Shown one piece after another: positions 1,393 to 28,510 of a DNA stretch of 64,000 bases. Made by a program: the position numbers and the translations under genes. Source of the DNA: Elsinoe ampelina (Eukaryota); contig ML992511.1 in assembly GCA_010093995.1 (NCBI GenBank), positions 1,020,172 through 1,084,171 on the forward strand, written 5' to 3'. Each line of letters begins with the position of its first letter. Position 1 is the stretch's first letter. The notes under the pieces are model-generated. The model was given only the letters and a program-made list of their open reading frames with translations. It was not told the DNA's origin and did not search any database.

Positions 1393-1429
1393 CCTCAGTC
1401 ATCACAAAACAAGACAACACACGCCAAAA

Positions 1430-2131
1430 ATGCGAAGCGTATTCCTCATTGCGCTCACTGCGCTTCAACTTGTCGCTGGTGCGGCTGTTCCCTCTCCAGG
1501 ATTGGAGGACAGTATTGCAGTTGTCCTTGAACCCGGCAAACACTACAGTGCCGAGGAACTGAAAGGTCTTAAAGACGCAGCAATCGCCAGGGGGCAAAAG
1601 CCTGGATTTCCCTCCGAGCTCTTCGAAACAGTGAGCGAAGCTACCACGGACGTCACGGTGGCCAAGAGAGACTCGGAACAGGCCTTGGAGAAGCGCGCCA
1701 CGACCACCCACGCCTTGCAGGCCAATTGGGCGTACACCTGCCCGATCCTGAGTCACCAGTCCAAGCAGTTCAAATGGCGGGTGAAGTACAACTACAACAC
1801 CGGAGTGATCAATTATGCTGGCGAATTGAACATCGATGGTTGGAAGAGCCCCTCGACGTCGGGTCATACCTTTCAAGCCAACTGGTATCACAGTGTCTGC
1901 CTCCACTTCGGTACCAAGATTTGTATCTGGCATTGGGAAGCTAGTACTGGTGGAGTCACTGCCGGCGAGACCTTCTCGTTGTCCATGACCACCGAAAGCA
2001 ACTTTCCCGGGGAGCTTAATCCTACGGTTACAGAGAGCTGTGTGGATGTCGGCTCCGGCGGCGGCGGCGTCTGCCCTGCCGTAGGCGGCGGTCGATGCCG
2101 AAACGATGATATCAGGGTGATACCGTATTAA
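1430..2131 (+). CDS. Secreted small Cys-containing protein with Kex2-type pro-region (effector/toxin-like), 233 aa
   Basis: Signal peptide MRSVFLIALTALQLVAGA, dibasic sites VAKR and LEKR, 6 Cys in the mature part, uninterrupted ORF. Confidence 0.8.
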   Translation: MRSVFLIALTALQLVAGAAVPSPGLEDSIAVVLEPGKHYSAEELKGLKDAAIARGQKPGFPSELFETVSEATTDVTVAKRDSEQALEKRATTTHALQANWAYTCPILSHQSKQFKWRVKYNYNTGVINYAGELNIDGWKSPSTSGHTFQANWYHSVCLHFGTKICIWHWEASTGGVTAGETFSLSMTTESNFPGELNPTVTESCVDVGSGGGGVCPAVGGGRCRNDDIRVIPY

Positions 2132-2466
2132 AGGAAGGGGACTTGTAAAGGAAGCGGGACGTGAACGGAGCAAGGATATCTTTTTTTTGGCTCCATCTCA
2201 CACCAAGGGTCGCGACCAATCGCCTTTAAGTAGCAATCCTTATTACTATAGTAATAAAGACTTCTACAATTGTTACCAATACTGCTCTAAATAGCCTAAT
2301 AAGGCGACTTGGTGACTTATTCGATGAGTCTTTTTCACTTTAAGGAGTGCTAAAGAAACACGACGTTGCGGAGGTGTGAAACCGAGCCTAAAAATGGCTG
2401 CAATGTTCCCTCTCGACCATCTTCCCCTCGACCATCTTCCCTCGGATACAATCCCCTCGAGCATCC

Positions 2467-5728: not shown

Positions 5729-8700
5729 TCAAGAGTCCAGCTCAGTCTTCAGTGTCTCGCCAAGAGCATCGCCCAGCTTCTTGCGATTCTTAAGGTTGAG
5801 AGAGCCATCGCGCCAAGCTCCAGATAGATGCTTGAATGCAGGGCGGGAAGATCTCGAGCTCTCATTCTTGAGGAGCTCAGCATAGTCGTTGACGATATGC
5901 TCGCGGACACCAATCTGACTGGCAAGTGCTTCGCTGTAGTATTTGATGAGATTTGTCATCCCAACGTCGTTGTGTCGCTGAGTGGCATCTTCGGATGCCA
6001 GATTCTTGAACTCGTGATACATCTGAGAATTAAAGTTGCGGATAAGGAAGTGTGACCAGAATTGGTATAGTACATCAAGGTCGTATGGACATGTGCCAGT
6101 AGCAGCAGCATCGCGCTGAGCCAAGGCTTTTGAGCGGAGAATGGTGTAGAGTTCGCCGGTAGTACCAATCGGAAGTTGAGCACTGTCAACGGGATCAGCA
6201 CGATCTTTGACCCAGTACAGGTCGACATCGCTGTTGGCTTGCTCGCCAGACTTTTGCGCGGATGTTGGGCTGGCAGGTGTTTCGCTGGGGATGTCAGCCA
6301 AGTTAATGTGATCAAGTCAGAGCATGTACCTGTGGGAACCACCAGTGCCGTTGATCATGGGCGCAGCAGCTTGTGATCTGGTAACTTCTTCCATGATACT
6401 CCGTGAGTCGATAGAGCCATTCGAGAATGTACGCGAATTGGCATTGTGCAAAGCTGGACGAGTCGACACTTCATGCTTTCGCACAACCACAGTAAGTCCC
6501 TCGATTTGTGATGATGGGAACTTGTCGGCCTCGCCGTCCTGAGGTGCTGAGCCAAACCCGTTTGTCAAGGGTGAAGCAGTGCTATCGCGATGCTGTGGTC
6601 TGACCTGACGTCCTCTAGACTCTTCCATTGGACCTGGCTGGAAGTCTGCAAACCTTGGATCCATCTGGCCAGGAAAGAATGTAGGGGCAGCAGCGGCATC
6701 CTGAATCTGGAAGGTGTCACGACGTCCGCCGCCAGTCATGGAGCCAGGGCTCTGTGGGAACGGAGGCTGGTCATAGAACTGGTTGCGGACCGGCGAAGGA
6801 CGGCGTAACTCACCAGGTCCTTCCGTCTGTGCAGCTGGATCACGAGCGTCCATGGGCATCACCCAGCGCTCCCAATCACGTACTTTGCGCAGTCGATCCT
6901 TGCCATCAGACCCGATACGGATCTCAATTTCATTCGAGCGAAGGCATGCCTGTTTGAGAATGTCGTACTCCGTGGTCATTTGCTTGACTCGATTAAATCC
7001 AGCAATGACCTGTAGGAAGATCCATCCTTGGGAGTCCATGTGCTTGCGGAGGAAGACATCTTTGGGCAAATTGTCTAGGGAGAAGTAGTATTCAATCTGA
7101 CCAAGGACAGTCATGATGAGCATTTCCTTCTCAGACGATGGGTGCACCGGGTATGGGCCTGCGCTGTATGGCCCATAGTAGTCAGGCATGAATGGCTGCT
7201 GCATAGGCGCCATGGGGTAGCCGGGATACCCACCTGGTCTTCCATAGTCGAATGGAATTGATTGGGAGCGAGGACCTTGATTTCGATATCCGCGACCACC
7301 ATGAGATCCTCGACCACCAGGGAAAAAGTTGCCACCAGTCGGCGACAGCGGCATCTGGTTGGGTGGGAATTCGGCGTAGCCAGCAGCATATGGGTTCGGC
7401 GATGCGAAGCTGTTGTTGTAGCCTCCGCGACCACCTTTGCGTCCTCCACGCTTGCCTTCACGGAAGCTACCAGGTTCGCGACCAGAGTCGTACAAGTGTG
7501 GCTCCGAACGTCTTTCAGAGTAAGTCGACCTTGGTGTCTGAAATGGCTCCCCATTTGTAGCAGCATCGGCTGGCCCTGGTAGTGACAATGCCAGATCCTG
7601 TGGGTGCTCAGACTGGCTCTTCTTGGCCGAGTCGCCATTTGTCTGAGGCGCTGCCGACTGTTTGTTTGGCGTGTCCTGGACAATCGATCGTCGATTTTGA
7701 TGTTCAGCATACTTTGGCGAAGTCCGACGCGCTGTAAAGGGCACTGCACGGCCATTGAGGTCTGATTGCTCTGTTGGCGTGACTTCAGTTTCCTTGGAAG
7801 GAGACACCCCATTCTGTTGCTGAGGTGCTCCAGTCTTTTGTGAGCTCTCGATATCGGTCTGAAGCTTTGCAGGCGGCGGCGGCATGGTGTCGCGATCTGC
7901 TTGGGGAGCGCCAGCTTGAGCGGCCTGCTTGTGGTCACCATTCGGTAACGAAGGGACACGTCCACCAGGGCGCTGCTCTGTTGCGGGCGATGCCTGCGGT
8001 GGACCTCGGGGACCACCAGGACCAGGACGGCCGGAGCCTTTACCCATTCGTGCACTTGGCTTGCCTTCGATTCTCGTCTCGAAGACAGCTGTTGGCGTGA
8101 AAGGAACATGCTCCCAAACAGGCTTGCCATGCTTGGAGCCGGCGGATGGGACACGCTCCTTTTCTTCGACCGACTTCTTCTTCTCCTCGTTTGTGACAGT
8201 ATCTGTCGGCTTTGGCCAACTTGCTTGACTCGACGTTGATGGAGCCAGCAGCTCGGAGTTTGCGCGATCGCGCGGCTTTATAGGTGCTCGCTTGGTGTCG
8301 TCTAGTCTTGGTTCTCGTGGACCTCTGCCACCCTTGAAGTCGCCCCGGCCTCTGCTAGGGAGCTCACCCCTCTTGAAGTCGCGACCGGCAAATGGTTGCT
8401 CAGACCTCCTACGACCATCAAACTTGCCACGATCACCCTCGGACGTGGTGGGTTGCGACTGTGTTTGTGGTGCTGGTGTTGGTTTGGTAGGTACATGTGC
8501 AGCGACCTTTGCCTTCAGCTCGGCGGCGCGCTTGTCCCAGATGTTCACCGTAGGTATCTTGGCCTCCTGCAAGACAGGCTTGGGAGGTTTCACTTCCTCT
8601 GCGTCTTTCTTCTCATCATCTGCACCAGCCTCGGTAGAGGCTGCAGTATCAATCTCCTTTGTCGTCGAGCCATTCTCTTCGTTGGGAGCGTCCTTGTTTG

Positions 8701-9004
8701 ATGTAGCATCTTTCTCCTCGAGTGTCGTGGTTTGACTCGATTGCACTTTCTCGTCAGACTCGGGAGTTGTCTTGTCACCCTGCTTGGTATTCGAAGAAGG
8801 TACTGAGGAGATATCGGTGGATGCCTGGCTCATAGTCTGTGCGCTATCCTTGGACTCTACATCATCTGCCCAATTCGTGCCCGGAGCTAGTTCGGGTATC
8901 GATGTGGTAGCTGGGGTTGTAGTGCCGGACGCACCAGCGCTGGATGGCTTTGTGGAAGGATTTGAGCTGGATCGCCCTTTGGCAATTGCTGCATAAGAGG
9001 CCAT
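5729..9004 (-). CDS. La-motif RNA-binding protein (LARP1/Sro9/Slf1-like) with DM15-like C-terminus
   Basis: La motif QIEYYFSLDNLPKDVFLRKHMDSQGWIFLQVIAGFNRVK, RGG-rich region, intron 6329-6285 joining an exon with LYQFWSHFL. Start (MASYAAIAKG, 9004) uncertain. Confidence 0.9.
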
Positions 9005-10132
9005 CTTGACCTTGTGAAGTGGTGAAAGGCCAGGCACTGGCCAGACAGGTAGGTACAGCAGTCAAGGACTGAGTCTGTCTTGTGTCCGGAGAGGTTTGTT
9101 ATTCAACCTCTCCGCACGGGTCCTCGTTTGTGATTTCCGCAGTGACAACTAATCTCTTGCCGAGTGTGATACGTTGAAGCTGTGGATTTCTCCTTTCGGG
9201 TATAAAAAAAAATGTCGGCGGGATCGAGTCGAGATGTAGCGAAAAATTTGGACTGCGAACCAGGATCTGGAGGTCCTTTCCAAGTAGCGACTACCTCTGA
9301 GTGGCTGTACAGAGAAAGTCGGGCGTGGGTGGTGACAGCTCGTGTGACGTGGGATCGAATATAGAGCTGGCCAGGTGGTAGGGAAAAAAAGGTCGATCCG
9401 AGGTCAGGGAAGCAGTCGCACTGCGAAGGCTGCCGTATATGTCCCGGCTCAGTAGAGAGCGACCAGTCGAACAACGAGCTTCTTAGCGAAGCAGCTGCTG
9501 TAGCGAGCTGTGAACGTGAGTCGGCGTACGAAAGGTAGTATGAGCACAAGCGGAGGTCGAATTTTGAGGAAAAACCACTGCTTCTCTCAGCACGGGCCAA
9601 GGGCGAGTGAAGTGTCCCGTCGACGGGAGGAAGCCGGCAAAGACCAAGGACACCACGTCAATTCTGACCAGAATGACCCCGCTGTGCCCGCTATGGTCGA
9701 TCGAATTGAGTGGTGAGCTGACGGAATGCCGGCCGGTTTCTGTGTCACAGAGGACAAAGCAGTGAATGGGCACGGAATGGTCCAAAAATGAAGTCAGTCC
9801 TCTCAAAATGATCGGCCAAATGGACAATTCAAGAACGGCCACATGCGAGGATTTATTTAATTTTTTTTCTACTTTCTAACGAAGCAGACCACCTCAAGTG
9901 ACGGCCCTAAAGAAGTTACCAATTGTGGAGTCGTTTTTAACGAACCTGCCACCATCGTGCCTGGCATCGAAAAGGCGAGACAAGACAAGTGTTGCTCGGC
10001 TCGGCTCTTTGCGGTGCATTGCAGGACAAGAAGGTCTCCAAGTCTTCGACCATTACCACTGCTGCGTAATTTAGCCAGGTACCTTTCTCTCTGTGACAGA
10101 AGAAGTATCATGCAGGCATGTTCTACCCTGAC

Positions 10133-11638
10133 TCAATTATGAAGACTGATCCTCCCTGCGATTAACCCTGGCAGCACTCCGAGCACTTCCGCAAATGCCA
10201 GCTTGCGTATTTCCCCGACCTCTCTCTTCCTTCTTCGTGACTTGACTTCTTCTACATCGATCTCTTGAACTCTTCCGTGCGGACCGAAGACACAAGTCTT
10301 GTCCGCATTCCATGGCTGTCTGCCGTGGATCCACTCGAGGTATCTCCGTCGTTGCTCCTTTGCCAGAGCTTGCCCCGCTGGGTTCACTGAAATGTCGAAA
10401 CCCTCAAACAAGTATAACAGATCCACCGCGTGGTGAGCTCTTGCTGATGCTTGCCACGGATTCGCTTGATCAAACAGATAGACATATGCAGTCTTCCCTT
10501 GTTGCTTGAACAAGTTCGCCAGATTCCAGGTAGGCATTGCCCAAAGCACATCATTGATCAAATCCAAAGCTCCGTGTCTCGCGCTGCTTGCCCGATCCTT
10601 GTTGATGTGATATAGCTTCTTCAACTTCTCTCCCGTCACCCCAGATTTCGTGAAAGACGCATCAATCTCCTCCCCAGACAACCCATCCACCCCATTTTTC
10701 CACAACACACTCTCATACTCACAATCCCCCACCACCAACTCCTCCACCCTACCCGTCTTCGTCTGCCAATCCTTCAACCCCTCCTCCACCTGCAAAAACA
10801 CACTCACCACCCCCGCCCCCCTCTGCGCCCTAACCAAATCCTCCACCGTCGCCTTCTCCAGATCCCCATCCCCTCCAAACCCCTTCAACTTCTCCCTCAC
10901 CGGCCCCCTCACCCCCGCCTCTCCCACCGCGTCCGGCCTGGGCCCACTCATCCACAAACTCCCACTCATCAACGCCACCCTCCTCACCTCCGCCCCCATG
11001 ACGACCATCGCATGCGCCAACGCCGCCCCGGCCGACTCTCCAGCAAGGGTAATCTGCTCCGCATCCCCTCCAAACCCCCCTATATACCGCCTCGTCCACT
11101 CCAACGCAACCATCAAATCCCGCAGTCCAAGATTCTTCCTCGTCTCCGAATCCCCAACATGGAAAATGCCAAGACGGTACTGCACCGAAACCACCACCAC
11201 CGGCGTCCCGTCCGCGACGCTCTGGCTCACGAACGTCCTCACGTCGCCGATCTTGCTCCCCGCGTTGCCGTAGGAGACGACTTGGCTGCCGCCGTGGACC
11301 CAGAAGAAGACGGGGAGCTTGGCGTCCTTTTGGGTATCTGAGAGGTCGGGAACAGCGATATCCAGGTTCGTGCAGGCGAATTCGTCTTCCGTGGTGGAGA
11401 ACCAGATGTCCCCTTCTGGTTCGCGGAGGAGGTAGCCTACGTCGACGGGGATCTGGGGGCACCGTGGGCCGAAGGTGGTGGCGTTGATTGTGGAGCCATA
11501 GGTGGTGAGAACAGAGGGGTTGGCGAAGCGGTGCGGGATGGTGGCGTAGGGGATGCCGCGGTAGTGGGTGTAAGGGGCTGAAGGGGGGCGGTGGCCTTGG
11601 AAGGTGGTGTCGAGGGTGGGGTGGTGGAGGGATGACAT
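10133..11638 (-). CDS. Type-B carboxylesterase (alpha/beta hydrolase)
   Basis: YRGIPYA, EDEFAC, WVHGG, nucleophile motif GESAG and HAVDL His motif. ATG at 11638. Confidence 0.92.
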   Translation of the reverse strand: MSSLHHPTLDTTFQGHRPPSAPYTHYRGIPYATIPHRFANPSVLTTYGSTINATTFGPRCPQIPVDVGYLLREPEGDIWFSTTEDEFACTNLDIAVPDLSDTQKDAKLPVFFWVHGGSQVVSYGNAGSKIGDVRTFVSQSVADGTPVVVVSVQYRLGIFHVGDSETRKNLGLRDLMVALEWTRRYIGGFGGDAEQITLAGESAGAALAHAMVVMGAEVRRVALMSGSLWMSGPRPDAVGEAGVRGPVREKLKGFGGDGDLEKATVEDLVRAQRGAGVVSVFLQVEEGLKDWQTKTGRVEELVVGDCEYESVLWKNGVDGLSGEEIDASFTKSGVTGEKLKKLYHINKDRASSARHGALDLINDVLWAMPTWNLANLFKQQGKTAYVYLFDQANPWQASARAHHAVDLLYLFEGFDISVNPAGQALAKEQRRRYLEWIHGRQPWNADKTCVFGPHGRVQEIDVEEVKSRRRKREVGEIRKLAFAEVLGVLPGLIAGRISLHN

Positions 11639-12169
11639 TTTGTTGAGGGTGAGGAGGTGGAAAGAGGAGAGAGTAGGAATCGAGGGTGACTTACTGTTGA
11701 AGATCGAGCTGGATCTTGGTGGTTGACGGCAGTTGGGTGGAGGGGAGGAGGATGTGGGGTTAGTTGGGGAAGCTCCAAGATCTTTCATGTCATTTCTAAT
11801 TTGCAGGTATACCTACTGCACAATCAACGTCCTGTAGCACGGTGTGAAGTATTTGCATGAAGCATAAGCTCGTTGTACATGTCGTGCCGAGTTGTGACAG
11901 TCAAATAGATGTCAGCTATTCCTCGTCATGCTGGGCTTCTCCAAATTCCGATCGCGGAACTCGTGGGGTCAAAAAAAAAATAGCAGGTGGGGTTACAGGG
12001 CTTTTCAGTTCAAACGAGCCACCCCCAGGCTTGGCGCACGCTTTACCGACTTCTAAGCTACAAATTTTAGTAGCTAGAGGTCTAGATAGTATATAGGTAC
12101 AAATTCGTTATTGTTAACTAAAATTAAAGCTAAAATAAGGTGTAATAAAGGTAGTATACCTTTATATAA

Positions 12170-14025
12170 GTATATAATAGCTAAAAAGTACTCTACTACC
12201 CTCCCTTACTACTAGCTAGCTTATAATAAGAGGCCTTTAAGAGCTACTTATAAGGCTAAAGAGGTAGTTAATACTTTATAAGAGAAAGAGGTAGTAGTAG
12301 AGTTATTACTAGTACTATTATAGTTTTCTTAGCGCTCTTCTAGCTCTCTTAGAGAGATTAATCTAGTTTAATAGAGGCCTCCGATACTATAACTATAAGC
12401 TAGCTAAACGCTAGTACCTTATCTAGTCCCTCTAAATATAGACTAAGCTCTTCTTAAGTATATTATAGCTAAAGGTACTATAGTCTCTTTTACTACTAAC
12501 TAGCTAAGGCCTTTACTTAAGTAACTACTACTAAGAAGACCTTTTTTTCTAGATAAGGGTAGTAGTAGTAGTAGTAAAAGAGAAAGAGTTAGATAAAGAG
12601 CTAGAGTTAGTAAAGAAGATATTAGAGAAGAGAAGAAAATAGTTTATTAAGAAGATAGCTACTTAAGAGAAAAAGAAGTAAAAGAAGAAGAAGAAGGCTA
12701 CTATAGAGGCTACTATAGCCTCTATAGTAGCCTCTATATAAATATCTCTATTATTACTTCTACTAGAGACGTAGGAGAATTACTTAGATAATCCCTTTAC
12801 TAGTTACTTAGTAGATATAAAATTAATAGTAAGACTTAGATTAAAGAAGGTAGCTCTAGATAAGTATATCTTTAACTAGCTAGCTAAGATCTTATAGTCT
12901 TCTATATTAGATTAGATAGTAAAGAAGAGATTAGCTAGCTTAGAGTATAATATTATTCTTCTTAAGGTTAATATAATTACTTAGTATAGTAGCCTTAAAA
13001 GAGATAACTATATAGCCTTTACTATAGTATAGTTAGCTAACTTTAAGGACTTAACTAGTAAGCTAGAGGCGTAGGCTTAAGATAAGTAACTACTATTAAA
13101 GACTAGCCTAAGTATAATAATAAAGAAATTAACTCTAGTACTATTTTTAGCTTAAGCCTCTTAGCTATAGCCTCTTTTAACTATACTAATCTTTCGATTA
13201 ATAATAGTACTACCTTCTATACTATAAGCCTTTTCTACTCTCTTACTATTATTAGCTTAGCTATATCTCTTCTTCTCTTTATAGTCTTTTTAAGATACTA
13301 TACCTTCTTAAGGCTATACCTTAGTAACTAGCTAACTATATAGTATATTAGTAGCGATAAATAGTAATTAAGAGCTAGATTTAATATAGTATTAGAAGTA
13401 TATAGATTAGACTTATATAAATTTTAGTAATATATACTAGAGAACTATTAAGGGTAAGTACTATAAGCTAGATAAAGCTATAAGGCTTTAATAGAGCGCT
13501 ATAGTAAGAAGTAATAGCTATAGTATTAATTAGCCTCCTCTAGTACTTATAATTACTCTTAATAGAAGTAGGCCTTTAAGAAGAGCTATCTTAAAGACCT
13601 CTATTAACTTACCTTATTCTATACTACTAACTCTACTACTAGCCTATTTAGCTTTACTAGTACTAGTTAATACTATTAATATTACTAATATATACTTAGA
13701 ACTACTATACTATATACTTCTTTAATCCTTATCTTCTTTAAGTAGTATAATTACTAACTTTAAGTAATTCTTATCTATTAGTTCTAATACTAATCTAGTA
13801 GAAGTTTTAGCTAAATTCTTTAACTAGTTAAAAAGGAAAGAGGCCTTTAAAAGGTAGAAGGCTATACTTAATAATATAAAGTTTAGATTAAAGAGTAAGA
13901 ATTATAATATTAATAGCCTTTAAAGTATTAATTTCTCTTATTAGAGAGAGAAGTAGTACTTTAATAAAAGTCTCTTAGTATAGATAATTAGTAAGATAAG
14001 CTTCTTTAAGCGCTAGTATCTTTAA
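12170..14025 (+). pseudogene. RIP-mutated accessory ORF inside the Tc1-like element (Lys-rich/coiled-coil region + putative C3H zinc-binding motif); ends approximate
   Basis: One frame whose stops are all RIP-type TAG/TAA. De-RIP of 13393-13539 gives W-x-C-x4-C-x-N-x4-C-W-x6-H-x2-L-x7-W-x13-PP. Confidence 0.55.
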
Positions 14026-14149
14026 TAGTAATATTATACTACTTAGTAGACTAGATAGCCTTCTAAAATTAGTATAAGAAGAGGTAGTAGAGAACTAAGG
14101 TAGTAGTATAGAGTTTTTAATATCTCTTAGTACTAGTAGATATTAAAGC

Positions 14150-15120
14150 TAAGTTTAACCTTATAAGTCTTTTATCTCTTTATACTTATCTATTTATCTT
14201 ATACTATATCTATAGCTTTTAAAATAGTTTCTAGCGTCTTTACTATAGTATAGCTAAACTACTAATACTAAGAAGTTCTAATATTTATTAAATTCTATAG
14301 CTAAATATTAGTACTTCTTTACCTATACTTTAAGTACTAAGAATAACTACTTAATAGAGTTAAAATTTAGTAAATATAGTAGTAAGTACTTAAGGTAGCT
14401 TCTATATTTAATTATAAGCTCTTTTACTTTATTATAGTAATATATTAAAGTATTATCTATAACTAGAATTAAGCTAGCTAGTAGCTATAGTAGTACTAAC
14501 TCCCTTAGCTACTAGATAAAGATATTCTCTATAATTAAGCTATAGTAAATAAGTACTCTATTAAGGTATTTATTTATAGTAATTACTAGAAGTATACTCT
14601 AGCGCTTACTTCTTTACTTTAGCTAACTATCTATATAGTTAATACTAATAGGTACCTATCTATATCTCCTTTATATAGTATACTTATTATAAGCTAACTT
14701 ATTAATATAAATAATACTTTTAACTAGCTAGCTCTTATAGTATATACTCTAATTATTTCTTAATATAGTATCTCTTTCTATAGCTATCTTCTTAGCTACC
14801 TTCCTTAACTACTTCTAGTACTTAATTATCCTCTAGATAGTACTAATAGATACTAGTATAGTATAGATCTTAAAGAGAAAGTTCTTTACCTTATTAAGAT
14901 AAGCTATAGAAATATTATTAAGGTATAGAATAACTTACTTAGAGTAGTATTAGTAGATAGTAAAGGCTAGTAAGAGTAAGACTTATATCTTTAAGAGCTA
15001 GAGATAGTAGCCTTAAGTAGTAGTTAACTTTATTAGGAGAATAAAGAGTACTAAAGAACTTAATTAATAGTCTTATCCTCTAGATAGTAGAGTAAGTAAC
15101 CTTAGTAGTACTATAGATAG
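14150..15120 (-). pseudogene. RIP-mutated DD34E transposase (DDE_3/IS630-Tc1 type); ends approximate
   Basis: After reversing RIP, in one frame: IDES (D at 14703), VMDNASIHH (D at 14457) and YLPPYSPDFNxIE (E at 14352), with 34 residues between the second D and the E. Confidence 0.85.
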
Positions 15121-15878
15121 TATAGTTTAAATAGCCTTTAGCTAGAAGAAACTCTACATTAGCTAATTTAGCTAGAGTAATTTAATAGTTTACTATACTA
15201 GCTATTATATCTTTTTTTAGCTTTAAAAATCAAGTAATTAACAATAATTATAACTATAATCTATCTAGACTTCTAGCTAGCCAAATTTGGTAATGCAACG
15301 TCTTAAACAATTATGCCAAGCCTGGGGGTGGCTCGTTTGAACTGAAAAGCCCTGTAAAAGTGGTCGGCTATTTTCGGCAAAGAGACGACAATTGCTCGTA
15401 ATGTCAAAAAGCAGGAATATCGAGACCAATTTTTGCTAATCTCCCTGAGTACATTGAGGCTGGAGTACAGTGTAGCAGGAGAACACCGAGGTAATCTTAC
15501 GACCGTTCGATGTTCTCAGGCTATACAGTAAGTACATATGCTTTGCTGGGTTGGAGAAGCCGTGGCTGTTACTGTTGCCAACTCACAGCGATTTAGATCG
15601 TGACACCATAGAAACACAGCGTTATACATCGAAGAGTGCCTGACATCGAAGAGCACCTGATGGTGGACCAAAACAGTCATGAAGGAAGTCTGAATACATC
15701 GCTCGCTAAGTATCATCGTAGATAATCGCACGTCTGTCCTGTCACCTGGTGCCCACTCACACTCATCGCCCAGCATTACCAGGTCCTGTCAACGTCTGCC
15801 CACGACGTCTACATTTTCGACCCGTAGATTGTGAGTCTCTGCACTCAAGCAAGCCTGTCCCAACGTCGCGCAGTTCCA

Positions 15879-17473: not shown

Positions 17474-18371
17474 ATTAGCCCTACGCGCCTCTTACGCGCA
17501 TCAATTGAGCGACTAAAAACCTGTCTATGAGACATGTCAGCTTGCTGCCTTAACATGATATTTAAGCGCGGGAAAAGAGCAAGTCGAATGAAGTATAAAG
17601 CAGGCTCTTACTGAAGACTAAGACACCGTATTCATTTTGAATACAGTCCTAATGCTCGAATTCTGTTTTCTTGCCTCAACACTAGAGCTTAGAAGCAGAT
17701 ACGTGAAAAACGATTAATCTCTTAGTGCTGTTGCTGAATTCACCTAGTTAGAGATATAATTATCTAGATAGCTAGAAAGAGACGTGCTTGATTACTAACG
17801 AATCGGTAAATCTGCGGGGTATTCGCGAAATTGAGAAGCAACCTCAAAAAGAGTATAAAATTAGAAGAGAGTCCGAACATCGAGGATTTTTCAATATGAA
17901 GAACCTCTTTCCTATCGCATAACCATCTGAAATGGTAATAAGATGCCGATGACGCAGATTTGTAGTGTTTGCTAGTCCTTTGTTAAGCAAATCTTGCAGG
18001 TCGCATAGCTTCGTCAAGAAGCATCTAAACCGTATCTCATTCGATGCCAACAAGTGATAAACTCTAGATCTATAGACCTTGCATTTCAGGACCCCAATAT
18101 TGATTCAAAGCAAGCAGCAGTCTATAGCTATTCCATGAGTGTCATGTCATTGCGTATCAGATGCATATGTTCCCATTGTGAGCTGCTAGCATCTTTCGTA
18201 TCAAGCAATTCGCGTCATCAACCCACGAGCATTTGTTAAACGCACCCCCACAGCTTTAACCGCACCATCGGAGGTTTCTCCCCCGACCCCGACCAATTTT
18301 TTTCCTCACCTCCATCTCTCTGCTCACCAAGCTGCCACCCTAACCACTCCCAACACCTCCACCACTCCACC

Positions 18372-19433
18372 ATGGCACAACCAGACCTCTCCCTCCCCGA
18401 GGGCCCCCTCCTCCGCGCCCTCGCCTCCTCGTCCCTCTCCCGCCGCCGCGCAGCAATGGCCAGCCTCTCCACCTTCCTCTCCAAAAAACAAAACTTCACG
18501 CAACTCGACTTCCTCAAACTCTGGAAAGGACTCTTCTACTGCCTCTACATGACCCCGAAAATGCTCCACCAGCAACGCCTCTCGATCGAAATCTCGGAAC
18601 TCACGTACGCTCTGCAAGAAACTCCGACAAGCCAGGGGGAAGAAGTGGTGGATGAGTCGGCGACGCAGAAGAAGCGCAAGCGCGGCGGGGCGCAGAGCGA
18701 TGCGGCTTCCAAGCGACGGCGGACGTCATCATCTGCTGCTGCTGCTCCGCCTGAAGAAAAGGATGGGGGGCAAGCGGAACCCAAGTTCCTCTCCTTCGTC
18801 CGCGCCTTTTGGACCACGATTGCGAGGGAGTGGGAGGGCATCGACAAGGCGCGGCTGGATAAATTCCTCTTCCTCGTGCGCCGGATGGTGTTTGTTGGGT
18901 TTGAAGGGTGTAAGGTCTCTTCTGGCTCGATCCAAGATCCTGAAGTGGCACAGGATGGGGACGAAGCGGGGGAGCAAGAAGGGGAAGATGACGGGGGAGA
19001 GGAGTACGAGTGGTCCCCTGCCCTGTTGAGTTCTTATCTGGAGATCTTGAAGCAAGGGCCTTTGGATGCAGGGAATATGAAACTCCCGATTGGGCTGCAA
19101 TTACATGTCCTCGATGTATTGGTGGACGAGATGGAAAGAGCGGATCCTGAGCGGAAGCTGGACACACAAGAGGTCGTAGGGATATTGGAGGGGTTGAAGA
19201 GAGAGAGTAAGACCAAGACGGTCAGGAAAAGGGCTGGGGAGGTGCTGCAGGAAGGGGGGTTGGGGGACTGGGCTACTGCTGAGGGAGGGACGGGCGGCGA
19301 TGTGGATGGGAATGGGATAGAAGGAGATGGAGTGGATGAGGGATCAGGGATCGGAGAGGTGGAGCAAGACGAGGAAGAAAAGGAGAACGAGGAGGAAGAC
19401 GGGGAAGATGGGTTCGAGGGCTTCGACGACTGA
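18372..19433 (+). CDS. RRP1: Nucleolar rRNA-processing protein Rrp1/Nop52
   Basis: LKLWKGLFYCLYM and REWEGIDKARLDKFLFLVRR Nop52 motifs, acidic tail. Confidence 0.88.
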   Translation: MAQPDLSLPEGPLLRALASSSLSRRRAAMASLSTFLSKKQNFTQLDFLKLWKGLFYCLYMTPKMLHQQRLSIEISELTYALQETPTSQGEEVVDESATQKKRKRGGAQSDAASKRRRTSSSAAAAPPEEKDGGQAEPKFLSFVRAFWTTIAREWEGIDKARLDKFLFLVRRMVFVGFEGCKVSSGSIQDPEVAQDGDEAGEQEGEDDGGEEYEWSPALLSSYLEILKQGPLDAGNMKLPIGLQLHVLDVLVDEMERADPERKLDTQEVVGILEGLKRESKTKTVRKRAGEVLQEGGLGDWATAEGGTGGDVDGNGIEGDGVDEGSGIGEVEQDEEEKENEEEDGEDGFEGFDD

Positions 19434-20047: not shown

Positions 20048-21012
20048 CTACTTGCAAGCCAAGCTAAACTTCGGCTTCCTGTTCGCATCCATAGCACCCC
20101 AGACAGTCTCAATCTTCTCCTCCCCATTGTCGCCAGTGGTGCTTGGCTTCCATGGCTCGTCAAAGGCCTCAAAGTAGAAGGCGTTGACGCCCCAGTCGAG
20201 CAGGCCGCAGAAACCTTGCTGGTAGAATGTCTCGGCGTTCTTGGTGCCGGCGCTGGCGGCCTCGTAGTCGCTGCCGCCGTCGGTGGGCCAGCCGGTTTCG
20301 CCGTTCCAGACTTCGATCTTGTCGAGGGAGCCGGATACGGATTGGATGCGGCCGAGGGCTTGCATCATGTCGTCGAGGTAGACGTGGGTGGCGTTCTCGA
20401 TGGGGGCGCCTTGCCAGTAGGCGAAGGCGTTGGCGAGGCTGAGGAGGGTTAGTGGTGAGGAGGGAGATGGACGGAGGATGAAGCTTACAGGATGTCGACG
20501 CCGCCTTGGATGACTGCATCTGCGGTGCCGTCGGCGTACTTGTTCCACGAGTCGGCAGTTCCGACCCTGACGCCATCTGGGAGAACACCCTTGATCTCGT
20601 TGATCTTCTCGAGGAGCTCTGGACCAGTGAAGTTGCCCCTGTAGAGCGTCTCGGAGCCAACCGTCACGGCGTAGACCTGATCCTTGTATTGTGGAACGTA
20701 TTGTTGGAGAGCGGCCTTGTCATTCTGCAATGACTCTGGGGTATCTGGCCAAACACCGAGGACGACCTTGAAATCCTTTGCCTTTGCTGCTGGGAGAATG
20801 TTCTTTGCGGTATCACACTGACCAGCAGCGTAGATACGGACAATGTTGCTGCCGGAAGCCTTGATGGCATCAAAGTCGGCTTCCCAATCGGATTGCTTCT
20901 TGCATTGTGTGGTGCTGCCAATGACGGATCCTACGGCGAATCCGTGTTTGCCGACTGCGAGGGCGGATGGGAGGATGGCTGCAGTGGCAGCGAGAGCGGA
21001 TGAAACACGCAT
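20048..21012 (-). CDS. BGL2: GH17 beta-1,3-glucanosyltransferase/glucanase (Bgl2/Bgt1)
   Basis: Signal peptide, VTVGSETLYR, NGETGWPT, FEAFDEPWK. Intron 20488-20439. Confidence 0.92.
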
Positions 21013-22259
21013 GACGGAGAGACGTATGTTCTGTGGGTCGTGAAGAAATGCCTGACGAGGCTGATTCGTGTTCAAGGAGAAACCCTTTCGTATCCGGGCT
21101 GGCGATTACGGACTTGTGTTGTAGCAAGCAAGAGAGCGCAGAGGTAGGAATCGAGACGCCTACCAGGGGGTTGAAAGAGTGACGACGGTTAGCGCTTTGA
21201 GATTTGTGATTGAGAAGGAGAATGGAGAAGTTGGAAGGATGTGAAGCAGGCTTGTTTGGCTTGAGATTCGAGGCGTGCAGAGTGGCCGTGCCCGGCAGCA
21301 GCCGCTTGCCCAAAACCCCTGACGCTAGGCCAGGAACGCGCCGCGCTAGACGGTCGTGCATACGGTAGCTTCCGCCAAAACCGTCAAAACCATCAAAACA
21401 CTCAAAACCCCAAATCACCAAAGTTTGGAGGCCTTTAACTCCCTTAATTCTGTCAATATTAGTATACAATTAACATTAAACTGATTAGATTTATCTATTC
21501 TATTATCCTCTAACTTCGAGTATCTTTTTTAAGCTATTTTTAGTGCTAGCGTAATTAGTGTAAGTTATAGCGGCTAGGCAGCGAGGTGCTTAGCACTCCG
21601 CTAGTACTCCTACCTCTAACACCTTTATATTGCCTATATTATACAAGTACGGCGGCGACTGCACTATAAATACTATTAGAATAGATCTCTATTACTCTCT
21701 ATTTAAGCTACTAAGAGTAAGGCTTAATCTAGTAGGTGTTTATTATTCCTTACCGCTTTTAGTTAGGTCTTTATATTGTTACTATTGTTACTATTGTTAC
21801 TATTTAAACTAGTAACAATAATAGCAGCTCTAATATATATAAGATTATAGTTACTATATAGTTTAATTAGACCCCTACTATACTATTATAACTCTGTTAA
21901 ATTTAATTAAATATTTACTATAGCTAATACTACTAAAGTAACCCCTACTAAGTATGTATTATAGCATGTTCGTAGCTAGTTCGCTATTAACTTTACACTT
22001 TAGAAAGTCTAATCTATAAGCGCTAGATGCTATAATTAATAATAATGCCTATACCTCTAATACCTCTAAGGAAACTACTAGTAACTCTAAGGCCGCGTAT
22101 GTCTTTATAGCTCCTTAGGCTAGTGTTCGCTACTAATTCGTATAGCTACTCTATTATATATATATATCGCTGCCCTAAGACTAAGAATCTAGCTAGATTT
22201 TAGTATATCTCTAAGTTAAACTAGTTTAAGCTTATTAACACCTACGAGAATAGTAGTAA

Positions 22260-22620
22260 TAAGCGTAGTAAGGACTTTATAACGCTCCGTATATATAATA
22301 CTATCGGCTGTATTATAGAGATAGACGAAGGTGGCATTAGTAAACGTACCTACGAATAGTATATAAAGTTAAATAAGCTATACACTTACTTTCTTAATAA
22401 GCTATCCGAGTTATATATATACTACTGCCGCTACTATCGCTAGAGGTGTGCCTCTTAGCTTATAAAGGAGAAGCTAGAGGATTAGAAGCTAGTAACTATA
22501 GGCCGTATTAAGGAGCTTAAGTAGAGAGTAGAGGCGCTAGAGAATAATACGCTCGCTACTAAGGCTAAGTTATAGTAGCTAAGGGATAGAATTACGAAAC
22601 TTATAAATAGGCCTACGAAC
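22260..22620 (+). pseudogene. RIP-mutated Zn2Cys6-like cluster + coiled coil carried by the transposon (core only; ends approximate)
   Basis: TAC/TAT/TGT codons at 22351, 22360, 22381, 22414, 22423 and 22447 give Cx2Cx6Cx10Cx2Cx7C after de-RIP, followed by the heptad RIKELKQRVEALEN. Confidence 0.6.
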
Positions 22621-22753
22621 TAGTAGCGAATATAATACCTATATATTCTTCTAGAGTTTATAGACTATAATTATACTCCCTTTATACTACCTCTTCTAGT
22701 CGATATTAAATCGTAACTATATACACTATAAATTACTTAGCGAACTACTAGTA

Positions 22754-22820
22754 ATCTAACTTACACTATCTAACTTATACTATCTAACTTACACTATTTA
22801 ACTTACACTATCTAATTTAT
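22754..22820 (+). repeat. 14-bp tandem repeat (ATCTAACTTACACT x4 + partial) inside the transposon
   Basis: Read directly; copies differ only by C-to-T changes. Confidence 0.85.
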
Positions 22821-23039
22821 GTACCTCTAAATAGTAGCTCCTCTCCCCTTCCCCTCTACCCCTTAGTATCTCTCCTTTCTACTCTACTACCTAATCTAGA
22901 GATATCTATATCTTACGTAGCTTAGTAGCCTCTACTACTATAAGGGCCTCTACTCTCTCTCTCTACCTCCCCTCTCCTCTATAAGGAGATTTTTTACTAG
23001 AAGAGAATTATTAGTAAGAAGAAGTATATATATAGAGTA

Positions 23040-24700
23040 TTAAACTACGCCTTACCCTTTTAGGTAAGCCTATAACTCTAGTATAGACTTATAAGGCCTT
23101 TTAGCCTTATAGCTAGTATAACTATAGAGAGTGTAGTCTATTAGATTAATTATAGTCTTTTAATACTTACTAGCCTTAATTAAGTAATTACTTCGTATTT
23201 GCTTATATGTTTAAGATTTATATAATTACGTAGGCCTACTAACTTCCTTATACTATTCTTAATACTTCTTAGAGGTAAGAGTTACCTTAGTCTTAATCTC
23301 TTACTCTACTCCTATAGATAACTTAGCTTTAAAGAGTAAGCTATATAGTAAGTTTATTAGCCTACTAAGGGTCTCCTTACTTAGTACTATACGCTATAGC
23401 TACTAAGGGGGGTCGAAAGGTAGTAGAGACTTAGTAGTACTATCTAGATTAAAGAGATTATCCTATATAGTTAATAACTCGAGACTACTAACTATACTAG
23501 TCGGTATACTTATAAGAAGGCTCCTAGTACAAAGCTTAAAGCGTAGAGTCTCTAGTAGTAGAGCTAGCGTAGTAGTAGTAGGTACGGCTAGTAAAGACTC
23601 TATAAGGTCGATAGTCTCTTTACTATTAACTAGCTAGCTAGGCTACTTCTTCTTCCCCTTTACTCTAGCTACTAAAACTTACTATATACGCTTCTCGATT
23701 AGGGCCTTAATCTTATTATTAACTAATAAGGGCTCTAGCTTAACATTAACGTCGTTAGAAGTATTTAAAAACGAGAAGTTAGTATCCTCTATAAAAAGAT
23801 TTTTATACTATAAATTAGCCTTAATATTCGCTTTAGTGTTTATAGCTAGGAATATTATCGTGTTTATATTAGTGTTTATAGCGTAACTTAGAGATTCTAC
23901 TTCCCTTTATAGATACTTTATATACTTCTACTATTGCTTCGACTTGTCGTTCTTAGCTTATTTAATTATAACATAAAGGAGATACTCGATAGTAGTACAC
24001 TTCGATTTTAGCTTACGTAGGAGGCTAACTAACATCTTCTAGATACTCGGCTACTAGAAGACGTTATTAGTAATAGGTATAGCCTTATTGTCCTCTATTA
24101 GTACGAAATAGCGCTTCGTAAAGCGTAGTATTACTATCTCTAGATCGTAGATAGTAGGGTCGGGGTAGTAACTATAGACTATATTTAATAAGAAGAATAT
24201 TCTTTAGTAGTTACTCTCTAGTAATTCGGTATTAAACTCTAACGGCGTAATCTAGTCCGTCTACTTAGTTAGCTCTAGCTAAGAGACGATCTTCTTATAA
24301 GGTATACTATACTTAAGCTTATACTTTACCTCGATTATTAGGCTATAGAGGTAAAGTCTAATCCTTTACTCTTTCTTAGCCTTTAGTCCTTTAGGAGTTT
24401 CTTCGTTAGGCAAATTGTTTAGTAAATCCTTATATAAATACTAAGAGACTAGTAAAGATCCTATATATAGTAATTACGCTACTACGCCCTTAGCCTTTTT
24501 ACTCTTCTAGTATCCTATACGCCTTACTATATCGGCTTTAGTCGAGAGACTACTATATATAGTTAGCGCTAGCGCCGTAGATTGCTTTATATTCGCCGCT
24601 ACAATTGCGAGTTAGCCTATATTAGCCTAAGATAGGGCGTAAGTTAGACTACTAGATAGCGCGTAAGCTAGATTATAAGCTAGATTATAAGATAGACCGG
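23040..24700 (-). pseudogene. Second RIP-mutated ORF of the 5.55-kb element, function unrecognised; ends approximate
   Basis: The minus frame read across about 24420-23940 has only TAG/TAA (RIP-type) stops and coding-like codon flow. Confidence 0.45.
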
Positions 24701-25099
24701 CCTATATAGGTTAGTACTTAGGCTCTTCTAGTATTAATACTATACTTACTTATTAATAGTTTAGATTAGTCTTATAGTAAATAGGACACTTAGCGAGGTG
24801 TCTATATTTAACTATATAATTAGAGCCTTTATATTTATAAAACAGTGCCTAAGAAGGTAGCGGTATATCGCTAATAGTAAGAAACAAACAATATAGTAGT
24901 AATAAGCAAAAACTATAGAGAAAATAGAGTAGAAAAGCCCTAGTATATTCGAGGGAGAAATTTAATATATATAAGTTAAATGTTTATAGTATATTTACTC
25001 GGCGTTTACGATTTGCTTAGCAACTTCTATATATAATCGATAGCCTTAAGAATTATTCGGTTTTTAGTACTCTAATAGCGGAGAATAGCGCTACTATTA

Positions 25100-26570
25100 A
25101 TTATGCTTAATTAGTGTATTATAAAGCATAAAATAAGCCCTTTAGTAGAGTCTAACACCGCGAGCATTAGTTACTTAACTATTATAAGGCTAGAGGCTAG
25201 TAGTAGAGAGGATTAAGGTATAGAGATTAAGAGTATTAGAGGGTAGATATTACTTATAATCTAGTGCTTAATTAGCTATAAATATCTATTAGTACTTATA
25301 CCTTACTAAATTCGCTAGTATACTAGTCTAAATTATTAAATTAGTTAGGTAGTATAGTAATAGTATAGTCCTATACGCCGACTACCTCTAGATAATAATA
25401 TAGGAGTCTTAGTACTTCTATAATTATATATAGTTATCTTAGCTACTTCTAGAGGTAGTAATAGTTCTATTAATATACGAATTACTATACCTCTATACGA
25501 AGGATAGGTATATATATAGCTACGAGAGCGACTTAGTAAGCAATAAGATTACACTTCTAGTACTTTAACTTCTTTAGCTTAGTAAACTATCTTCGCTAGT
25601 AGTTCGTAGTACTCTTTGCAAGCTAGGCCTATTATAATTTAATACGCTAATTCTGCTTACTTGTACTAAATAAGAAGGCTTCCTTTACCTCTAAAGGGAA
25701 ACTACTTAGCTAACGCTAAGCGTTAAGATACACTTATAAGACTATCGTAGTCTTACTCTCTCTATCTATATAGATCTTAAGGGGGATCTAGCTATATAAG
25801 GTAGTAATAGTAGTATACTACTTTATAATTAATATAGCCTTCCTTACTAAGAAGCCTATATAGGCCTAAACGATATAGTATAAAAATTTGTTAATTATAG
25901 TATAAATCTTAATACTATACTCCTTAAGCTTATAATAGGCATCTATCGACTAGGTATAGTTCGGCCCTAGTACGTCTTATACGCTGTAACTAGTAGGCTA
26001 CTAGTTACTATAAATCTAGAACGCTAAGGGATTAATTATAATTATAGCGTAGTAAAGGCGCTAGCTAGGTTAGAGTTAGTAAACCAACTAGTAAACGCAT
26101 TATAAACACATATTACCTCCTAATAATCCTATGCTTCTGCCTTATATAGGTATAAAGGTAGCTAAGGCTCTAATTCTTAATATTGCTAGCGTTATATTTA
26201 CTTTATAGTAGCTACTATATTTACTTATACTTAACCTTGTTCTCTTCTTAATTAATCTAATAGATAAGGCCTAACCTTTTACATAGGCGCTTTAGCGTCT
26301 CTAAAGATATATTAAAGCCTTGCTCTTTTAGTACCTCTAGCGTCTCTTACTAGCTAATATATAGCTAGAATAGCTCCTTAATACTATAGTAGAGAGCCTT
26401 AGAGTTAACTAGTGCCTTAGAATAGGTAGAGAGCTACTAGCCTTATAAGAGACACTAGAGCGTTCTAAGCGACAGTATATAACTACGCCTTAATAGCCTC
26501 TAGAGTACTTTAGGCTAATTATAGCACTTATATAGTAACTAGTACTTAATAAGAGGCCTATCTACCTCGA
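25100..26570 (-). pseudogene. RIP-mutated retroviral-integrase-like DDE transposase with N-terminal Clr5/HTH-like region; ends approximate
   Basis: De-RIP, single frame: GPNYTWSIDAxxKLxxYGIxIYxxIDxFSRYIVW (25967 onward), RxDRESET (D at 25766), GTSKQNQRIESWW (E at 25640), then WNxHxLRKQ. Confidence 0.85.
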
Positions 26571-27522
26571 TTATAGCAGATTATAAAGCTATATCGAGTA
26601 GTCTAGTATGTTAGGGGGTAATAGGAAGGAAGGTACAGAAAACTAGCACACCTGGCTTTTATACTAGCGCTAAGCTATAAAAAACTAAAGGTATATAATA
26701 AGAGAATAATACTTACACTAAACGATAGAGCGTTATAAGAGCTGTCGATTGTAATAAGAATTATTGTAATAAGTGGTATAGCTAATACGCGAGGAGGTGG
26801 TGTAATTGCAAATGCTAGGTTTAAGCGTTTTGATGGTTTTGAGCGTTTTAATGGTTTTGACGGTTTTGACGGTTTTGGCGGAAGCTACCGTATGCATGAC
26901 GGTGCGCTAGGATGGAGTCTCGACCAATAAGACGCAAACATGAAATTTCGGGGATGCGTTCAAACTCTGTCAGTCCATGGTCGTCAACAGCATACGCATG
27001 TGCATGACGAGTCGGAGGCTGCTGCTCGGTCAATTTCTATCGTCAAGGTTGTACGTGTGCATGACATCGGGAGCTTGAGGCTACAGGCGCTCTTGAAAGG
27101 AGAGTGCACCACAATGCAGCTTGATCACAAACCGAACAGCGACAGTGTACACACAAGGTCACCATAGGCACAAGTTACAAGGAGTGATTTTGAAAGTTTT
27201 TCATTTAGATGGCTGTTCTGTTTTCCAGCACAGAAGGCTTACTCGGCCAAATACCACCATCCCTGCACTCCAAATGAATCCTAACGTGGGTATTCTAGTC
27301 GGCTAGTCTCTCGACTCAACCGCTACAGAAAGAGAAGAAGCTGTATATATGATATGCTGGGCATTACAAGGGCGTCATGTCGTGCGGCTTTCATGGCCGC
27401 GCCCGCGAGGTCGGATTGTCTTTCCTTGACTCGATCGAAATTGATAAAAGTGTATTGTTTGGTGAAGTGGTGATCATTTACTGACACCGAATGGAAGTGA
27501 AGACTCGCGGTGGGTCAACCGT

Positions 27523-27897
27523 TTAGAGACGACCGAAGAGAACCTCCTCGATGCCGTTGACATGGGAGATGGTAGATGGTCTTGGCTCGATGATGTCGAG
27601 GAGACCGTCGTTGCATGCCCGTCGCTCCTCCTCGAGCTCGAGCTCAACAGTAGATGGCTTCCGCCTGATCATGTTGCGCATGGAGCGGAGTTGGAAGGAG
27701 AGGTTTGAGAAGTTACTGGCGGTTGAGAAGCGGTTGGATTGGCCCACCCGCGATGGCGAGCATGCTGGTGATGACGTGTAAGATTGAGCATCAGACATGT
27801 TGGACATGCTAGGTGATGGAGATCCAAGGGGAGAGACAATGGACTTGATCTTGCGGAAAGAGTTGGAGGGAGAGACTGGCGAGAAGGTGGCGGACAT
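27523..27897 (-). CDS. Small Ser-rich hypothetical protein (124 aa)
   Basis: Clean ATG ORF with coding-like codon usage; C-terminal ELELEEE...IIEPRP...GIEEVL segment. Confidence 0.65.
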   Translation of the reverse strand: MSATFSPVSPSNSFRKIKSIVSPLGSPSPSMSNMSDAQSYTSSPACSPSRVGQSNRFSTASNFSNLSFQLRSMRNMIRRKPSTVELELEEERRACNDGLLDIIEPRPSTISHVNGIEEVLFGRL

Positions 27898-28510
27898 GTT
27901 TGTATAGTAGTTGGTGATAGTGGTAAGGAGTGTGGAGCTGGTGGTGATGATGATGTGTCGGGTTAGAGAATGTTTGAGTTTGTCGTCGTAAGATTGTCGA
28001 GGTGTGTTGCTGTGTGTGGTGGAGATGTTTGAGCTTGGGAAGCAGATGGCTTCTATATGTATGGCGTGTCTGACAAGAGTGACAACGACGCCCCGCCCCG
28101 CTTGGCTGGGAAAGGAGACGAAGGTTGGGAAGGGGAAGAAATATCGATTCCAACGGCGTCGCAGTTCCGTGATGGTACAGCTGCCAGCAAGAGGATGTTT
28201 AGGTCCAACGGCGTAAAGCGCGACAAAGGCAACGGCCAGGTGCCAACGCAGAGAGTCACGTCAAGAAGACAAACGGCGGCAAGAATAGTAACGCGCAGCC
28301 GAGAGTCCTGTCTCTGACTGGTAGAAAATGTTTGTCCTTGACAAGAAAAGAGTGTAGAGAATGAACGACTGTTTTAAAAGAATGTGAGGAGGTCAGTGAT
28401 AAAGTGATGAACAGGCACGAGATGTATAAAATGTTTGCTGGCAGGATCAGCTATAGATATGCCCCTCAAGTAGAGACCTGCTACATGTCTAATTTGCTCA
28501 CGGGGACATG

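Follow-up and report, generated by a model that had tools for sequence, protein, structure and literature searches.

The 64,000-nt stretch of Elsinoe ampelina contig ML992511.1 analysed here (the window) contains a DNA transposon of a known though little-studied kind, of which it is a further, dead member. The element occupies positions 21350-26903 and is 5,554 bp long (5,554-5,555 bp if boundary ambiguity is allowed for). It forms an AT-rich island with a GC content of 0.31-0.40; the remaining window is at about 0.5-0.6. Very probably it is one inactivated copy from a fungal family of DNA transposons whose transposase joins a helix-turn-helix (HTH) region to an rva_4/rve-type catalytic core of the DDE (Asp-Asp-Glu) class, and the published fungal IS3EU elements and Styx/REP9 appear to be members of it. 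A first-pass annotation had described a three-gene transposon with terminal inverted repeats (TIRs) and an integrase-like transposase of IS3EU type. This was partly confirmed: the observation is real and the classification essentially right; the three-gene content is unproven.

The transposase is encoded on the minus strand. The frame from 26798 (P0001, stops read as X) matches the Pfam family rva_4, 'Integrase core domain', with E=0.0025. An exhaustive HMMER search returned 151 database proteins at E<=1e-3, 47 of them at E<=1e-10; the top match (E=1e-23) has 33% identity. All 30 top homologues scanned carry rva_4, 21 match rve at E<=0.001 (two above the cut-off) and eight have an N-terminal Clr5 domain; an H2C2 zinc finger was found in 0 of the 30. 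The alignment of the window with its homologues spans GPNxxWSxD..KL, RxDRGxET and NQRIExWW and continues to WNxHxIRxQ, which bears out the three motifs (the second as RxDRxxET) first proposed for this strand.

The positions proposed for the catalytic residues, and the 41-residue gap between the second and third, are exact. The first aspartate is encoded by GAT at 25943 (25941-25943) and the second by GAT at 25766 (25764-25766). The glutamate codon at 25640 (25638-25640) is now AAA and encodes lysine, one G>A change from GAA. The spacing is 58 residues between the two aspartates and 41 between the second aspartate and the glutamate position, the same as in homologue P0005 (D202, D261, E303).

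Relatives were collected in one scan of soil metagenome contigs, which gave 344 stretches encoding them; 80 loci (L numbers below) with 1,712 open reading frames (ORFs) were kept. Comparison with these ORFs made use of RIP-aware profiles, which are local profiles permitting the back-changes of repeat-induced point mutation (RIP), with reversed sequences as a control. The best match to a related ORF rises from 94.7 bits (E=2.8e-28) with phmmer to 147.7 bits (E=1.9e-44) with the RIP-aware one; the reversed control gave 0.

The family was also compared with prokaryotic models and with solved folds. Of 29 homologues, 22 match the NCBIfam model for IS3, the best with E=6.7e-13, and 13 match that for IS481, at scores far under the cut-offs (e.g. 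35 vs 160 bits). Folds were compared using a high-confidence AlphaFold model of homologue P0005 (mean predicted local distance difference test score, pLDDT, 87.4) and not the window's mutated sequence. This model matches 37 solved chains at E<=0.001, led by TnsB of Tn7 and the CRISPR-associated transposons (CAST) and by the integrases of prototype foamy virus (PFV), Rous sarcoma virus (RSV) and mouse mammary tumour virus (MMTV); the integrase of human immunodeficiency virus (HIV) is matched as well. By sequence, the family profile finds no integrase in the PDB, only an HTH match. The reading of the transposase as integrase/IS3-like, and not of Tc1, hAT or MULE type, is therefore upheld by rva_4, by the IS3 models and by the P0005 fold.

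The transposase gene would consist of three exons separated by two short introns with fungal signals. Exon 1 (26117-26610, minus strand) holds the N-terminal HTH region with two HTH-like stretches, and is placed by the frame from 26799 and by the N-terminal ORFs of relatives. It aligns with the N-terminal ORF of L048 at E=7.1e-9 (26499-26104), with weaker alignments up to 26610, and its RIP-aware profile matches the relatives' N-terminal ORFs at E=6e-9. Putative intron 1 (26065-26116, minus strand; 52 nt) reads GTAATA...TACTAAC...TAG and coincides with the shift in frame between the matches of exons 1 and 2. In relatives, too, the frame changes at this point between N-terminus and core; L001, L008, L014, L025 and L047 have split ORFs. 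Exon 2 (25307-26064, minus strand) encodes the DDE core of rva_4/rve type and contains 30 in-frame stops. Putative intron 2 (25261-25306, minus strand; 46 nt, GTAAGG...GCTAAT...TAG) would restore the frame of putative exon 3 (24995-25260, minus strand), a C-terminal part placed by frame homology. Its RIP-aware profile matches L005_774-1145, the ORF that follows the core ORF in the closest relative, at E=2.5e-5 (25294-24995); the translation with stops as X gives E=0.003.

The start of the protein had been described as Clr5/HTH-like. The HTH part of this stands, as the N-terminal region is homologous to that of Clr5-bearing relatives, but Clr5 is not detectable in the window itself. The transposase frames have no Pfam match to it, and a profile from 14 Clr5 segments of relatives touches the second HTH-like stretch weakly (E=0.056). 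The family N-terminus resembles the HTH of the sigma-54 RpoN box (E=0.003). A full-text literature search for Clr5, integrase and transposon together returned nothing relevant.

The ends of the element carry TIRs with internal repeats. The left TIR (21350-21408, plus strand) begins ACGGTCGTGCATACGG and the right TIR occupies 26845-26903 (minus strand); each is 59 nt long and the two are 90% complementary. The outermost termini are ACGGT...ACGGT, and the motifs TACGG (21361-21365) and CCGTA (26888-26892) lie 11 nt further in. Tandem 9-bp subrepeats form a left array at 21372-21409 (plus strand, consensus CCGTCAAAA, 4.2 copies) and a right array at 26820-26881 (plus strand, GTTTTGACG, six to seven copies; 6.1 copies over 26827-26881). 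CAAAAC occurs at 21376, 21385, 21394 and 21403, with no other plus-strand occurrence in the element; GTTTTG occurs at 26827, 26836, 26854, 26863 and 26872 only. All four CAAAAC and all five GTTTTG boxes fall inside the end arrays, mostly 9 nt apart, and nowhere else in the 5.5 kb. The first CAAAAC box is 27 nt from the left end of the element (counted from 21350). Of the 12 TIR-bounded loci of relatives, 6 have a CAAAA box at a distance of 27-36 nt from the end (27-28 nt in L003, L014 and L063), and in L008 and L054 the box is repeated in a short tandem array. The 9-bp subrepeats are predicted to be transposase binding sites. A repeat comparison of the element gave no long terminal repeats (LTRs) and no long internal direct repeats; the annotation was thus correct both in its TIRs with tandem 9-bp subrepeats and in its statement that LTRs are absent.

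The element is a discrete insertion flanked by a target-site duplication (TSD) of 6-7 bp. The direct repeat that had been noticed at its flanks is the heptamer GCGCTAG, found at 21343-21349 on the left and 26904-26910 on the right; the two copies are identical at shift 0, and may represent 6 bp plus one ambiguous base. An empty site confirms the insertion. One 1,111-nt contig from public run X3, which comes from another organism, covers 20950-21342 and resumes at 26904-27013, omitting 5,561 nt; the element (5,554 bp) and a single 7-nt repeat together account for exactly this length. Since this contig joins 21342 to 26904, the boundaries of the element are the outer ends of the TIRs and the insertion is a true one. 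The empty site gives only the sum of element and TSD, so that a 7-bp duplication and a 6-bp duplication with a one-base shift fit equally well. Boundaries at the internal TACGG/CCGTA motifs with a 6-bp TSD were also considered and rejected; the adjoining hexamers, CGTGCA and TGCATG, differ, and the empty site omits 5,561 nt. In runs X4 and X5 (organism C), contigs reach the flanks alone, to 21212 and from about 27211, without a joint.

The element bears strong marks of RIP, whose changes are of the C>T and G>A kind. TpA/ApT is 2.02 and (CA+TG)/(AC+GT) is 0.23 within the element, against 0.57 and 1.20 in the 10-kb flank. The three transposase exons contain 61 in-frame stops, which means that this copy is dead. 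RIP also accounts for the damage to the protein. An alignment of 29 homologues has 57 columns with conservation of 80% or more; the window retains the conserved residue in 27 of these, and 25 of the 30 differing columns can be explained by a C>T or G>A codon change; the reverse-direction control explains one.

The window itself holds no second copy of the element (blastn, element against window). Copies elsewhere were sought in public-run contigs placed on 20300-28000 at a likeness of at least 80%; the window probably derives from run X1. Contig depth, summed for this run and not equal to copy number, is 1,735-4,230 in all 22 element bins and 220-238 in the flanks. The 815 run X1 contigs on this stretch differ from it mainly by transitions (A>G 221, T>C 223, C>T 168, G>A 172), with every transversion class at 3-17. 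The raised depth and the dominance of transitions together indicate that the family is multicopy in the run X1 genome and that its copies have diverged by RIP-type changes. Copies also differ by insertions and deletions, since three run X1 contigs lack 4 nt at 21759 and one, from another copy, has 22820-23067 swapped for 29 other letters (22819 joined on to 23068). Run X3 likewise contains diverged pieces of the interior (23544-24061 and 24169-24746) and of the transposase.

Among the related metagenome loci, 12 have a TIR pair around the transposase gene. Many of them end in TACGG, TATGG or TGCGG or have such a motif no more than 2 nt from the end: TACGG in L025 and L046, TATGG in L063, TGCGG in L030 and L078, TG+TACGG in L054 and TG+TGCGG in L061; L003 has GACGG, L014 has TACCG, and there are others. 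In relatives 5.8-7.9 kb long, the TIRs enclose between one and three further intact ORFs of 250-445 residues. These passenger ORFs are mostly unrelated to each other, with three matching pairs among 23 ORFs. In L008 (3953-4456), L009 (3585-4106) and L038 (4565-5116), a DUF3716 ORF lies on the opposite strand beside the transposase. Neighbouring transposable elements (TEs) are common around relatives. In L004, a 10-kb metagenome contig, an Argonaute gene (959-4024; Piwi, ArgoN and ArgoL1) is located directly upstream of the transposase homologue.

The complete relative in L046 occupies 6555-13106 of a 67-kb contig and has TACGG termini. Its TSD, TCCCTG, is clean and 6 bp long. It encodes a Tet_JBP-like ORF (7989-8999; E=8.4e-6), the transposase (9851-11038) and a convergent ORF of 350 residues that has no Pfam family. 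In appearance, this element resembles the TET+ IS3EU elements of PMC12730594.

Bacterial IS3 elements are 1.2-1.5 kb long, have TG..CA ends and express their transposase by frameshifting. IS3 and IS481 are the best-matching prokaryotic transposase models and share with the window's element the order of HTH and then DDE core; in contrast, the window's element is 5.5 kb long, eukaryotic and apparently interrupted by introns. Retroviral and LTR integrases and TnsB of Tn7/CAST share the RNase-H-fold catalytic core seen in the P0005 model, but have only 10-20% sequence identity, and the window's family is without a zinc-binding N-terminal domain, LTRs and reverse transcriptase (RT).

The closest published systems are found in eukaryotes. 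IS3EU elements have 6-bp TSDs, TAYGG..CCRTA ends (in the fungal families) and TET/JBP passengers, and an alpha-kinase gene is reported in TET+ IS3EU families (PMC12730594); PMC10045372 describes them as having TA..TA ends and no HHCC motif, and as grouping with GingerRoot at 99% bootstrap. The window's element resembles IS3EU in its IS3/IS481-related DDE transposase with an N-terminal HTH-type region and no HHCC zinc finger, its long TIRs (>30 bp), its short target duplication and the position of the transposase adjoining one end (PMC10045372, PMC12730594). The TAYGG..CCRTA motif is present within both of its TIRs, and its relatives carry passenger genes including a TET/JBP-like one.

Styx/REP9 of Zymoseptoria is a 7.9-kb element with four genes, 43-bp TIRs and 6-bp TSDs; two of the genes (REP9-1 and REP9-2) encode DUF3716 and the integrase-core transposase is nearest to IS3EU (PMC8232023, PMC10853768). 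Styx/REP9 is thus a multi-gene ascomycete element in which TIRs bound an integrase-core transposase, and it has been placed in IS3EU as a distant member; the DUF3716 genes beside the transposase in L008, L009 and L038 recall REP9-1 and REP9-2. Styx differs in having four intact, expressed genes and in being active and not RIP-mutated; the window's copy is 5.55 kb long and dead. DUF3716 was not matched in six frames of 21350-25400, where RIP may mask a 59-residue domain, nor did the RIP-aware window profile match the DUF3716 ORFs of the three relatives. GingerRoot likewise encodes a DDE transposase related to integrases and has TIRs, with TSDs of 6 bp, but has been described from plants and animals and has TIRs of 100-150 bp, while the window's element is fungal with 59-nt TIRs made of 9-bp repeats (PMC6839031).

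IS3EU membership of the family is probable, given the element features of the relatives and the published descriptions. The IS3EU label fits the relatives, through their TACGG/TGCGG-type termini, 6-bp TSD, TET/JBP and DUF3716; it does not extend to the ends of the window's element, which are not TA..TA. Such elements had been called poorly described in ascomycetes. This is outdated, as the four-gene Styx/REP9 and a TET+ IS3EU element in Tuber are in print.

Several points weigh against this classification. The window's own rva_4 match is under the gathering cut-off (18 vs 26 bits), and so is the Tet_JBP match of L046 (25.5 vs 34.9 bits). The link to IS3EU is indirect, made through the relatives' element features and the papers. 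At the window's element, the outermost ends are ACGGT...ACGGT and not TA..TA, with the expected motif 11 nt inside, and the direct repeat is 7 nt (possibly 6 + 1) where IS3EU usually gives 6. Among the 11 relatives with both flanks, L046 alone has a TSD and ten show none; short metagenome contigs with chimeric flanks possibly account for this, which is an assumption. The alpha-kinase gene was absent among 122 scanned ORFs of relatives (38 + 84). Finally, both the chemistry of transposition and the recognition of the 9-bp repeats by the transposase are predicted features.

Between the left TIR and the transposase lies an interior of about 3.6 kb (21410-24990), in which stops crowd every frame. 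Stop density is no marker of the coding frame here; other frames have fewer stops than the one proven to encode the transposase. The annotation had placed a second ORF and a convergent third gene in this region. The candidate second ORF (23001-24560, minus strand) has the orientation of the transposase, 33 in-frame stops and a marginal coding signal; the candidate third (22060-22620, plus strand) has a coiled-coil-like C-terminal stretch and is statistically unsupported. A 14-bp tandem repeat, ATCTAACTTACACT, is present in 4.7 copies at 22754-22819.

No homologue was found for either candidate. Pfam gave nothing at E<=0.1 in six X-read frames of 21350-25400, the only hit being YjcB at chance level (E=0.29). 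Phmmer with six interior frames and RIP-aware profiles (reversed control 0), each run against the 1,712 ORFs, returned transposase matches only, and in purine/pyrimidine-coded blastn against the 80 loci the transposase core alone exceeded the reversed control. A word-index protein search with the second candidate, among proteins of 286-910 residues, gave nothing at E<=0.01.

A purine/pyrimidine (RY) dicodon score should outlast RIP because RIP leaves purine/pyrimidine identity intact. In the minus-strand frame at about 23300-24500, this score has a maximum of 18.6 per 100 codons at about 23600-23900, which 6 of 200 Markov shuffles reach; in the plus-strand frame at 22100-22550 it is 14.6 and 12.2, reached by 53 of 200 shuffles. 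The second ORF is therefore a weak possibility, with a marginal coding signal, and the third, whose signal is absent, is not supported. The score is low-powered: for exon 2 of the transposase, which is proven to be coding, it is only 1-9, and 199 of 200 shuffles do as well.

These results can be read in more than one way. One alternative is that the transposase is the only gene and that the rest of the interior was never coding, serving as a long spacer or regulatory region. The absence of a Pfam match or homologue in 21350-24990, the chance-level plus-strand score and the marginal minus-strand candidate would all fit this. However, the score is one by which exon 2 itself fails, relatives of about this size have further ORFs, intact and 250-445 aa long, and published IS3EU and Styx elements have two to four genes (PMC8232023); a one-gene element is accordingly unlikely, though it deserves consideration. 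Passenger genes in the interior are plausible because relatives of 5.8-7.9 kb carry extra ORFs, and by this analogy one or two such genes, specific to the lineage, were probably once present in the 3.6 kb.

It is less likely still, and in our view improbable, that the element is composite, with unrelated nested insertions making up the 3.6 kb inside a short IS3EU-type element of TIRs and transposase. The lack of homology between the interior and the 1,712 ORFs of related loci could be taken this way, as could the scarcity of matching pairs among the relatives' passenger ORFs and the frequency of TEs as their neighbours. Against it, no internal TIR or LTR pair or TSD-like structure was found; the strongest inverted pair inside the element measures 35 nt at 80%, with one arm in the transposase core. 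Depth is evenly raised in 22 of 22 bins in run X1 and run X3 has interior contigs, which fits a single unit amplified whole, and in relatives 5.8-7.9 kb long, too, the TIRs around the transposase enclose additional ORFs.

That the element is instead an LTR retrotransposon remnant or another integrase-bearing element such as Ginger or Polinton/Maverick is very improbable: its core has the retroviral-integrase fold in the P0005 model and 21 of 30 homologues also match rve weakly, but it has TIRs and not LTRs, no RT, RNase H, protease or H2C2 was found in the element, in the 30 homologues or among the 38 ORFs that the 12 relatives with TIRs contain, two Gypsy-type integrases from the fetched loci were matched neither by the window profile (E=48, 200) nor by the family profile (E=2.4, 200), and the top prokaryotic model is IS3.

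A more specific form of the IS3EU-type reading can also be considered, in two parts. Firstly, the element would belong to its own IS3EU-type fungal branch, with an 11-nt outer extension repeating ACGGT, four to seven tandem 9-bp boxes for transposase binding per end and a 7-bp stagger. Secondly, it would have carried two accessory genes without homologue in the libraries searched. That both parts hold is doubtful. If they did, the function of the accessory genes, e.g. transposition control or escape from silencing, would be new.

For the DNA transposon of IS3EU type preferred here, a mechanism can be proposed. The N-terminal HTH domains of an active transposase would bind the 9-bp CAAAAC repeats in both TIRs. 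Several protomers may occupy each end and so pair the ends of the element. The D-58-D-41-E site of RNase-H fold would then cut and join DNA with a stagger of 6-7 bp. After amplification of the element, C>T and G>A changes of RIP type put the 61 stops in the transposase and turned the catalytic glutamate into lysine. Bacterial IS3 elements move by copy-out-paste-in; for the window's element, cut-and-paste and copy-out-paste-in are both compatible with the sequence.

The element is intergenic and lies downstream of the gene for the nucleolar protein Nop52 (18240-19433, plus strand). A GH17 glycosyl hydrolase gene (20048-21105, minus strand, two ORF pieces) has its 5' end at a distance of about 250 bp from the left end of the element, so that the insertion is in the upstream region of that gene.

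The window contains two other AT-rich blocks. The first, of RIP type, is an element of about 3.36 kb at 11993-15357 with perfect 43-nt TIRs (11993-12035 and 15315-15357); it starts TTACAGGG and finishes CCCTGTAA. Its ends, TA + CAGGG, are presumably reminiscent of Tc1/mariner-type elements; six X-read frames gave no Pfam match. The second block (1-1300) is cut by the window edge and has a GC content of 0.32 and RIP-type indices (TpA/ApT 2.23, (CA+TG)/(AC+GT) 0.40).

Few eukaryotic DNA transposons have been studied as little as those of IS3EU type. Styx, which reshapes the chromosomes of a wheat pathogen, is the sole well-studied fungal member. A dead copy such as the one in the window leaves the understanding of how these elements work unchanged. 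What it contributes is a clean insertion together with its empty counterpart, a well-defined architecture of the ends in which arrays of 9-bp CAAAAC boxes recur in some relatives, and a worked example of a transposase recognised despite heavy RIP. In addition, it provides evidence that a family of HTH + rva_4 proteins common in soil fungi lies within TIR elements with IS3EU hallmarks.

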